Part shown: piece by piece, positions 33,026-36,000 of the stretch
How the letters are laid out: the number at the start of each line of letters is the position of its first letter
Position numbering within the stretch: position 1 is the stretch's first letter
DNA from: Escherichia coli
GTDB taxonomy: Bacteria > Pseudomonadota > Gammaproteobacteria > Enterobacterales > Enterobacteriaceae
DNA length: 64,000 nucleotides
Strand: one strand, 5' to 3'
Assembly: GCF_045037415.1 (NCBI RefSeq)
Contig: NZ_CP173438.1
Position numbers: made by a program

Positions 33026-36000
33026 TTATTGTCCTGCGAGTTGCTGAAGGGCTGTGATGACGCGGTCGGCATCGGCGGTGGTCATATCCGGGAACAGCGG
33101 CAATGAACAGATGCGTTCGCTATTCCATTCGGTATTCGGTAACGACAGCGTGGGAAAACGCTCGCGATAATATTTTTGTGTGTGAGCAGCGCGGAAATGT
33201 AACCCGGTACCAATGCCTCTTTCTTTTAACGCTTCCATCAACGCATCGCGACTGATACCACAACGTTGTTCATCGACACGAATAATAAACAGATGCCAGG
33301 CGTGAACGTGCGGCCAGGCGGGAAGGCTTAATGGCTGAAAGGGGAGAGTTGCCAGTGCTTGCTGATATTGCTGGGCAATTTCGCGCCGCCGGGTGTTGAG
33401 GTGCTCTAATTTGACTAACTGTGTCAGGGCAATCGCGGCGTTAATATCGGTCAGATTGTACTTATAGCCCGGCGTTAAGACTTCAGCCTGCGGTGCACGG
33501 CCCCAGGTATGTCTGTCATAGGCATCGACACCCAGACCGTGAAATTTCAGCATCCGCAGCTGGCGGGCAAGATTTTCATTATCAGTAACAATCAGGCCAC
33601 CTTCCGCACAGGTAATATTTTTGATGGCGTGAAACGAAAAAATAGCGGTACCTTTTGCGCCAATATGTCGCCCTTTGTAATACGTACCTACGGCATGGGC
33701 AGCATCTTCGATAACTGCGATGCCGTAACGTTCGCCAATGGCGCGAATGGCGTCAATATCTGCTGGCGCACCGGCATAATGCACCGGAATGATGGCTTTA
33801 GTGCGTGGTGTAATGGCTGCTTCGATCGCTTCAGGCGTGACCATCAGCGTATCGCGGTCGACATCCACCATTACCGGCGTTGCACCCAGCAAGGAAATCA
33901 TATTGAGGGTTGAAACCCAGGTCAGGGAAGGCGTAATCACTTCATCGCCCTTGCCAATTTCCAACGCCATTAGCGTGATATGCATTCCGGCGGTGGCTGA
34001 ACTGACCGCGATGGCATGCTGATTTCCCGTCAACTGGCAAAAAGCTTGTTCAAGCGCCTGATTCTTCGGACCGGTTGTGATCCAACCGGATTCGAGAACC
34101 TCTTTAACTGCAGCGAGTTCCTCTACGCCCATTGCTGGTCGCGAAAAAGGCAAAAATCCTGACATTGTTTTTCCATCCGTCATTGAATACCTGTCCACTT
34201 ATATTTGCTATAAAGAGTGTTGTGTATATTTTGCCATTTGGAGCAAAATTTTAAGGATAGAATATTAACTTAACCTTAAGAAACTAATATTAGACGTAAA
34301 TATTGAAATTTTTATATTTTTTCTTATTTAGACTTTGCATTTGGCAAAATTTTGAGGCATTTTGCCGGCATCATAGGATTTTTAATATTACACCAACTGC
34401 TAATTATCGCCAGAAAAGTCGCTCAATTTCACGGTAATTGTCTGGTTGCGCTTGTCTACAGGTGGAGTTTACGTGTTAGCTTTTTGCCGATCTTCGTTGA
34501 AGTCAAAAAAATATTTCATCATTTTACTGGCGCTCGCTGCAATTGCCGGACTGGGGACTCATGCCGCCTGGAGTAGCAATGGTTTGCCACGCATCGACAA
34601 TAAAACACTGGCCAGACTGGCACAGCAGCACCCGGTTGTCGTTTTGTTTCGCCATGCTGAACGTTGCGATCGTTCAACCAATCAATGCTTGTCAGATAAA
34701 ACAGGTATTACGGTCAAAGGTACCCAGGATGCCCGTGAACTGGGCAACGCTTTTAGTGCTGATATCCCTGATTTTGATCTCTATTCCAGTAATACCGTCC
34801 GGACTATTCAGTCGGCGACCTGGTTTTCGGCGGGTAAAAAGCTGACGGTAGATAAACGATTTCTTCAATGCGGTAATGAGATTTATAGTGCAATTAAAGA
34901 CTTACAACGCAAAGCACCTGATAAAAATATCGTTATTTTTACCCATAATCATTGCCTGACATATATTGCTAAAGATAAGCGTGATGCGACATTTAAACCT
35001 GATTATCTGGATGGTTTAGTCATGCATGTGGAAAAAGGCAAAGTTTATCTGGATGGGGAATTCGTTAACCACTAAATTTTCAATCTGACAGCCAGTGATG
35101 GCTGTCATCATTGTTAAAGAAGACCTTTCAAACGTAACGTTTTTCGGGTGGCAACATTCAAATCATAATGCACCAGATCTTCAGGTTTTACCCACGCGTA
35201 GTCCTGAAACTCTTCGTTTATTTTCACATCTCGGTTGGCAGAAACGCAGTCAAAAATCAGGTAAATCATATAAATCTCTTCCTTGCGACCATCTGCATAC
35301 GTCTTGGTGCGAATATCATCGCTGAAGGTCCACGGCGTGATTTCTGTCAAAAGCAGCTGTTCTCCCAGTTCTTCGCGAATTTCGCGGCGTAGTGCCTCTT
35401 CAATTCGTTCGCCAGGCTCCACGCCGCCACCCGAAAGCGCCCATTGACCGGGGAAAACGCCGCGATCGTCGGCCATTTTACACAGCAAATAAGCACCATC
35501 ATTTTGAATCAAAGGGCATACAATAGTCCGTTGTCGCACAGGGGTATTCCTTATAAATAAAAAGAAACCATGAGAATACGGTAACTCAGAAATATGTGAA
35601 AGTGACAGTAATCTCTTTTGCGATGATAACTACATTTATTATTATTTTTGTGTGTATCGATAAAGTGTGTTTATTTTTTCGGCGTTTAATTATTTAAGAA
35701 GTATTTAGTTACAATAAGTGACTAGATCCCTTTTTTCGCTCATTGAATCCTCTGCGCCAGGCAGTACAATCCCGCAGCTTTGGGAATTTTGATTAATTGC
35801 TTGTGGGAAAGAGGATAATGAAAAAAATTGCGCTAGCAGGTCTGGCCGGAATGCTGTTGGTTTCTGCATCGGTCAATGCAATGAGCATCAGCGGCCAGGC
35901 GGGTAAAGAATACACCAATATTGGTGTCGGTTTTGGGACTGAATCGACGGGCCTGGCGTTAAGCGGTAACTGGACACATAACGACGACGACGGTGATGCC

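Follow-up and report, generated by a model that had tools for sequence, protein, structure and literature searches.

The window, a 64,000-nucleotide stretch of an Escherichia coli contig (NZ_CP173438.1), carries on its minus strand an arnB gene whose coding sequence, read from its likeliest start codon, spans positions 33026 to 34165 and encodes 379 amino acids plus a stop codon, ending in ...AGQ; this delineation draws on the open reading frame, the PGAP start and the first position of the family model. The longest open reading frame of the gene is somewhat longer, running on the same strand from 33026 to 34198 (390 amino acids). Against the NCBIfam ArnB equivalog NF008658, a model of 379 positions, the product of this frame scored 738.4 bits (cut-off 631), with residues 12-389 aligning to model positions 1-378, such that the model begins at residue 12 of the 390-residue protein. 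The gene is the same as that encoding ArnB (also PmrH, PbgP1 or YfbE), the UDP-4-amino-4-deoxy-L-arabinose--oxoglutarate aminotransferase of E. coli K-12 and Salmonella (PDB 1MDO and 4OCA), and the Salmonella chains in these two structures match residues 6-390 of the window protein with an E value of about 5e-216. The family's lysine motif (Lys188 in the 385-residue Salmonella numbering), whose lysine we take to be PLP-binding, is present in the window protein; in 4OCA the aligned position is an alanine, consistent with a lysine mutant. Given its close homology to the characterised Salmonella enzyme, window ArnB would be expected to catalyse the transamination of UDP-4-keto-arabinose.

The surroundings are those of the first gene of the arnBCADTEF operon. 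In the RefSeq annotation ais and arnB flank the intergenic region in divergent orientation and arnC lies downstream, and we found arnB to be followed by a 322-residue ORF of the glycosyltransferase 2 type (ArnC-like) and then by a 660-residue ArnA-like ORF. K-12 arnB has the same operon neighbours and the same PmrA-box promoter, and differs from the window gene at 26 of 1137 nucleotides.

Three in-frame candidate start codons stand at the head of the gene, on the minus strand: a GTG at 34198-34196, an ATG at 34183-34181 and an ATG at 34165-34163, which would yield proteins of 390, 385 and 379 residues, respectively. With an in-frame TAA (34201-34199) standing directly before it, the GTG is the earliest start candidate; the codons GAC AGG TAT TCA separate it from ATG 34183, ACG GAT GGA AAA ACA lie between the two ATGs, and TCA GGA TTT TTG CCT TTT TCG CGA CCA follow ATG 34165. 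When we re-read the sequence, the coordinates, frame and translation given for these candidates in an earlier sequence-only reading of this DNA all proved correct, as did its placement of the onset of conservation near FLPFSRP, which begins more exactly at M-S-x-FLPFSRP; the leader that it had called uncertain corresponds to the first 11 residues of the 390-residue ORF. A fourth ATG (34176-34174), which that reading passed over, is out of frame. The presence of two extra in-frame starts is unremarkable and not beyond chance, the probability of at least two ATG, GTG or TTG codons among 11 stop-free upstream codons being about 0.08 under the local A+T-rich base composition.

Public records are divided over which of these codons begins the gene. 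The exact window protein occurs on at least 1000 public contigs in its 379-residue form and likewise on at least 1000 in its 385-residue form, whereas the 390-residue form appears on two (yfbE, E. coli O25b:H4). In the curated record of K-12 MG1655 (NC_000913.3), arnB occupies 2365910..2367067 and starts at the equivalent of ATG 34183 (385 residues), and PGAP chose the equivalent of ATG 34165 in all six PGAP-annotated RefSeq E. coli genomes that we checked. Structural work is similarly split, with 1MDO and 4OCA starting MAEGKMMSDF, which is the 385-residue form, and the native ArnB part of 8SNG and related entries starting MSDFLPF after an 8-residue tag; since both lengths have yielded structures, both fold, and the extension is tolerated and not needed. 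As in bacterial gene-start ambiguity generally, the longest-ORF, first-ATG and homology rules pick different starts here and a Shine-Dalgarno (SD) sequence is read as codons, and the arnB case differs solely in the persisting disagreement between the curated K-12 record and PGAP. It is thus an ordinary annotation ambiguity that is already public.

The arnB promoter and its mRNA leader

Upstream of all three candidates lies a PmrA (BasR) box, CTTAAG-gttaa-GTTAAT, at positions 34264 to 34280 on the minus strand, and this box is kept in all eight aligned species. To place it relative to the transcript, we turned to the primary arnB transcription start site (TSS) of K-12 MG1655, which was mapped by Cappable-seq to 2365854 (PMC12987492, Table 1). 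This nucleotide is the capitalized A of gctccAaatgg in NC_000913.3 and maps by homology to 34239 in the window (minus strand), which puts the box at -41 to -25 and a putative -10 element, TAAAAT (34248 to 34253), 8 nt upstream of the inferred TSS. PmrA boxes are described as two hexamers 5 nt apart that overlap or replace the -35 element (PMC10570014). The window sequence shows this architecture, with an XTTAAY-type hexamer pair (CTTAAG and GTTAAT) separated by a 5-nt gap and, relative to the homology-transferred TSS, an overlap with the -35 position, in agreement with what is published for such boxes (PMC10570014; PMC2565834); we found no difference from the PmrA-activated pbgP/arnB, ugd and pmrC promoters, and the geometry is independent of the start codon chosen. 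A generic sigma-70 scan did not pick up the arnB promoter, as expected of an activator-dependent promoter without a -35 element, and we did not use the scan as evidence. A search of 33900-34600 against Rfam returned no known RNA element (E <= 1).

From the inferred TSS, the leader would measure 41 nt to the GTG, 56 nt to ATG 34183 and 74 nt to ATG 34165, and all three codons would consequently lie on the transcript. The sequence-only reading pointed out that the choice of start changes how far the start codon lies from the PmrA box. This distance carries no mechanistic weight, because the box stands in for the -35 element and its action is set by the TSS, which at its inferred position of 34239 is upstream of every candidate.

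Conservation and ribosome binding at the candidate starts

To decide among the candidates, we compared ArnB N-termini across relatives, the check proposed in the sequence-only reading, and it came out in favor of the innermost codon: among the 120 best homologues, 115 open with M-x-x-FLPFSRP, that is, exactly three residues before FLPFSRP and at the equivalent of ATG 34165, and nearly all of these are 379 residues long. We then turned to DNA from 11 further enteric species, retrieved through exact-protein look-up, a set sufficient to settle the question of frame. ATG 34165 is kept in all 11, and in ten of them a purine-rich SD motif lies 6-8 nt before it: GAAGGA in E. albertii, Salmonella, C. 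farmeri and C. portucalensis, TAAGGA in E. fergusonii and Kluyvera, AAGGA in E. hormaechei, AAGGGA in Pluralibacter, AAAGGA in C. amalonaticus and AAAGGAG in Pseudescherichia. The sole exception is Pseudocitrobacter, which is without a clear motif at this place. Conservation of ATG 34165 in other species is not in itself proof of the codon used in this strain.

The sequence upstream of ATG 34165 behaves differently. An N-terminal extension with a function as protein would be expected to keep an open frame under purifying selection in relatives; instead, the frame is closed in E. fergusonii (a TGA at -3, with ATG GCT TAA farther up), in Kluyvera (a TAA at -12, within the SD motif itself) and in Pluralibacter (a TAA at -15), and in C. 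portucalensis a one-base insertion shifts it to read ATG GCT TGA. ATG 34183 is missing from five of the 11 species, and only E. albertii, Salmonella, C. farmeri and C. amalonaticus have it in frame and open, leaving the six extra residues absent or unreadable in seven of the 11. At the DNA level, the leader cannot be aligned from one genus to another outside the PmrA box and an island running from ATGGCTGAAGGA to ATG 34165. Because these are the only parts that align, the conservation of 'Glu-Gly-Lys' is at the level of RNA and not of protein, and the 'EGK/DGK' codons are the SD sequence itself (GAAGGA, as in GAA GGA AAA) read in frame.

The GTG at 34198 fares worst in this comparison. It is the first start codon in the open frame and would be transcribed, and the two O25b:H4 records annotate it, yet it is absent from E. 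albertii and from every other species (0 of 11), being confined to E. coli among the sequences examined, and it is the annotated start neither in PGAP nor in the curated K-12 record. GTG is, moreover, a weaker start codon, and the sequence upstream of this one has no complementarity to the 16S rRNA tail (predicted duplex +0.2 kcal/mol). Its use is very unlikely, and a 390-residue protein made from it has in our estimate next to no chance of being the native product.

The sequence-only reading had noted plausible ribosome-binding motifs before the second and third starts, and both are there. A weak SD-like AGGT (34189 to 34192, minus strand) lies 5 nt before ATG 34183, and the SD region serving ATG 34165 (34172 to 34178, minus strand), which reads GGATGGA in the window and GAAGGA in K-12 and most other enterics, lies 6 nt before that codon. 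With the rRNA tail, the predicted duplex energy is -2.9 to -3.9 kcal/mol for AGGU, -4.4 to -5.7 kcal/mol for the AAGGA of K-12, and -5.5 to -5.7 kcal/mol for GGAUGGA of the window lineage if a one-base bulge is allowed, or -2.4 kcal/mol for a contiguous duplex. Opening the mRNA is also predicted to cost less around ATG 34165 than around ATG 34183, both for the window allele (8.9 vs 11.2 kcal/mol) and for K-12 (7.8 vs 9.0 kcal/mol). Taken together, these modelled energies favor ATG 34165, but they are soft. Folding also predicted a long-range helix between leader positions +5 to +11 (GGCAAAA) and codons 4-6 (UUUUGCC); as the leader arm is found only in E. coli and E. albertii, we did not take it as a conserved structure.

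Several of these observations weigh against ATG 34165 and would fit a native E. coli protein of 385 residues (MAEGKAMSEF... in K-12) made mainly or solely from ATG 34183, with a short extension peculiar to the Escherichia/Salmonella clade. The curated MG1655 annotation uses this codon, the 385-residue form of the exact window allele is widespread in public records, the Salmonella enzyme was crystallised in that form, which makes the extension at least tolerated, and in E. coli the codon has its own well-spaced, if weak, AGGT. However, a stop closes the extension in E. fergusonii, which belongs to the same genus, and a frameshift disrupts it in C. portucalensis; the AGGT is not conserved in Salmonella, where the sequence before ATG 34183 lacks rRNA complementarity (-1.9 kcal/mol); every difference within the species in the extension changes an amino acid (see below); and the strongest SD, which is also the only conserved one, is downstream of ATG 34183 and correctly spaced for ATG 34165. 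We consider this reading improbable.

Substantial use of both ATGs, giving isoforms of 385 and 379 residues in a ratio set by competing, overlapping ribosome-binding sites, strikes us as unlikely too, if slightly less so. Purine-rich motifs stand at a workable distance from both codons, 18 nt separate the two sites on one leader, and the ATG 34183 codon persists in Escherichia, Salmonella and Citrobacter alike, including where it is out of frame. In the window allele, furthermore, the predicted strengths of the two motifs lie nearer to each other (-3.9 for the upstream motif vs -2.4 contiguous or -5.5 bulged for the downstream one), and the interruption of the downstream SD in this lineage could tilt the balance toward ATG 34183. 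Against this, we found nothing to show that the six extra residues, absent or unreadable in most of the 11 species, matter; dual initiation would be a by-product and not a designed feature.

A literature search on the arnB start codon, N-terminus and ribosome profiling turned up neither direct N-terminal data nor initiation profiles for ArnB, which also has no entry in the TRAINSPOTTER N-terminomics and INRI-seq supplementary data. The choice of start therefore rests on comparative inference, and it is by this route that we infer which codon ribosomes use in this strain. On the comparative evidence, ATG 34165 is probably the main start of arnB, yielding a 379-residue ArnB. In the model that we propose, the PmrA-box promoter would drive a transcript from approximately 34239 with a 74-nt leader to ATG 34165, and the 33 nt that stretch back from this codon to the TAA at 34201 would be part of that leader. 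The segment from ATG 34183 to ATG 34165 would serve as the ribosome-binding site, in most enterics bearing GAAGGA 6 bases before the start and thereby spelling Glu-Gly-Lys, and translation would proceed mainly from ATG 34165 to give the 379-residue aminotransferase. The residues MTDGKT, or VDRYS ahead of MTDGKT, would form no functional part of the enzyme, and ATG 34183 may act as a minor, low-level alternative start that gives at most a minor, tolerated isoform. The 'leader' makes better sense as untranslated mRNA in which the ribosome-binding site lies than as a protein segment that varies; longest-ORF and first-ATG callers would arrive at 390 or 385 residues because in E. coli no stop happens to interrupt the frame.

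Alleles of the start region within E. coli and what they may mean

Of 5426 complete E. coli genomes, 5416 contain a stretch of 571 nt around the arnB start, and the window's version is 100% identical to that of several human isolates. Within the 81 nt around the starts we distinguished four main alleles and counted exact matches among about 5400 complete genomes. The K-12 type, with the extension AEGKA, accounts for 4105 genomes, and an O157 variant of it, which also encodes AEGKA, for a few hundred; the window allele (TDGKT) is found in 624, and a sister allele (TDGKK), carried by NC101, Nissle 1917 and the type strain ATCC 11775, in 340. The extension frame is open in all four, and the paired ATGs occur in every E. 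coli sequence examined as well as in the four other species in which the upstream codon is in frame and open. The suggestion that the N-terminal extension is strain-specific is thus refuted: all E. coli sequences examined share the arrangement, and what varies, by lineage and allele, is the residues.

K-12 combines AEGKA with the motif GAAGGA and a Glu at residue 3, whereas the window lineage combines TDGKT with GATGGA and a Gly. In the 15 nt between ATG 34183 and ATG 34165, all three differences between the window and K-12 change an amino acid, compared with 7 changing and 19 silent differences in the following 379 codons (Fisher one-sided P = 0.03). An excess of this kind would be more in keeping with sequence that is untranslated or free of constraint than with a conserved peptide.

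One of these differences, a lineage-specific A to T change at 34175 (minus strand), falls in the SD core and also creates the out-of-frame ATG at 34176-34174. In the aligned sequences, the column is A in K-12, O157, LH85-a, E. albertii, E. fergusonii, Salmonella and both aligned Citrobacter, and T only in the window, R13 and NC101. Across complete genomes the T is carried by the two sister alleles (approximately 960 E. coli genomes), including an O25b:H4 record as well as Nissle 1917, NC101 and the type strain. Altogether, four allele differences (34180, 34175, 34168 and 34158) lie within 23 nt around the ribosome-binding site. We considered two stronger readings of these changes and adopted neither. 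A clear weakening of the SD by the lineage allele is not robust, as the bulged duplex is as stable as that of K-12 and is weaker only if contiguous pairing is required (-2.4 vs -4.4 kcal/mol); we retain it as a possibility and do not count it as a result. Similarly, taking the cluster of substitutions as a sign of selection fails: by a rough hand estimate three derived changes in approximately 26 nt are nominally unusual, and this does not survive correction for the many possible windows. It is conceivable, although we think it improbable, that the change at 34175 and its neighbors have retuned ArnB translation, either by lowering output from ATG 34165 or by shifting some initiation to ATG 34183.

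Beyond annotation hygiene, the choice of start matters little. Residue numbering and the design of reporter fusions hinge on it, and the curated K-12 record (385 residues) and the RefSeq pipeline (379 residues) are still at odds, with the comparative evidence favoring the 379-residue form. arnB is the first gene of a lipid A-modifying operon that protects against polymyxin and colistin, and retuned translation of ArnB, if it occurs, could alter L-Ara4N on lipid A and hence polymyxin tolerance. Should the change at 34175 affect ArnB output, it would contribute in a small way to how E. coli lineages differ in polymyxin tolerance.

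Insertion elements at the arnB start and promoter

Two E. coli genomes carry insertion sequences in the short interval that holds the arnB start candidates and their promoter. In strain ETEC1738 (NZ_CP122768.1, positions 1501-2900 of locus L018), an IS10-like element with an ISVsa5 family transposase sits precisely at the start of arnB, at a site homologous to approximately 34161-34169 of the window, and the element is flanked by a 9-bp target duplication, AGCAATGTC. Among the start candidates, only ATG3 (34165) is left in the arnB copy downstream of the element, which is thereby separated from its own Shine-Dalgarno motif, ATG2, GTG1 and the PmrA promoter. 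A 379-aa arnB is nonetheless annotated by PGAP at this interrupted locus. The second insertion lies in the PmrA box of the blood isolate EC5931 (NZ_CP104592.1, approximately 395-1175 of locus L017), where an IS1 occupies a site homologous to 34272-34280 and has generated a 9-bp target duplication, CTTAAGGTT. This duplication restores an intact PmrA box (CTTAAGGTTAAGTTAAT) adjoining the IS1 end, but the A+T-rich DNA upstream has been replaced. The sequence flanking the IS1 is 100% identical to the window.

Allele differences around the ribosome-binding site

Across the arnB ORF (33026..34198), we found 29 differences between the window allele and that of K-12, four of which (34180, 34175, 34168 and 34158) are packed into the 23 nt at 34158-34180 on the minus strand, compared to a divergence of 2.3% in the rest of the gene. 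Comparison with outgroups indicates that three of these clustered changes, at 34180, 34175 and 34158, are derived in the window lineage. We also observed that the lineage-specific A->T at 34175 gives rise to an out-of-frame ATG (34174-34176, minus strand), which opens a frame of 17 codons (ATGGAAAAACAATGTCAGG... to TAG) overlapping the arnB start and lacks usable spacing to any Shine-Dalgarno motif.

The ais-arnB intergenic region and arnB leader

The start of the divergent gene ais is likewise ambiguous (34446-34475, plus strand): its longest ORF, of 209 aa, begins at TTG 34446, the start matching the 603-nt RefSeq CDS (200 aa) would be GTG 34473, and the K-12 ais TSS is at 2365723 (PMC12987492). 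Several copies of a motif, GGCAAAAT/ATTTTGCC, are present between the two genes at 34225-34370 on the minus strand. The copy at leader positions +5 to +11, conserved in E. coli and E. albertii only, is predicted by a minimum-energy fold to pair with arnB codons 4-6 (UUUUGCC).

Directly 5' of the Shine-Dalgarno motif, alignment identified a hexamer, ATGGCT/ATGGCG (34178-34183; approximately 680-700 in the comparison loci L008 and L010), that is kept in Escherichia, Salmonella and Citrobacter, and outside of which the leader is unalignable across these genera. The hexamer forms a two-codon mini-ORF in E. fergusonii (ATG GCT TAA) and C. portucalensis (ATG GCT TGA). Its retention could reflect simple linkage to the Shine-Dalgarno motif, or the hexamer could be a start-stop element.
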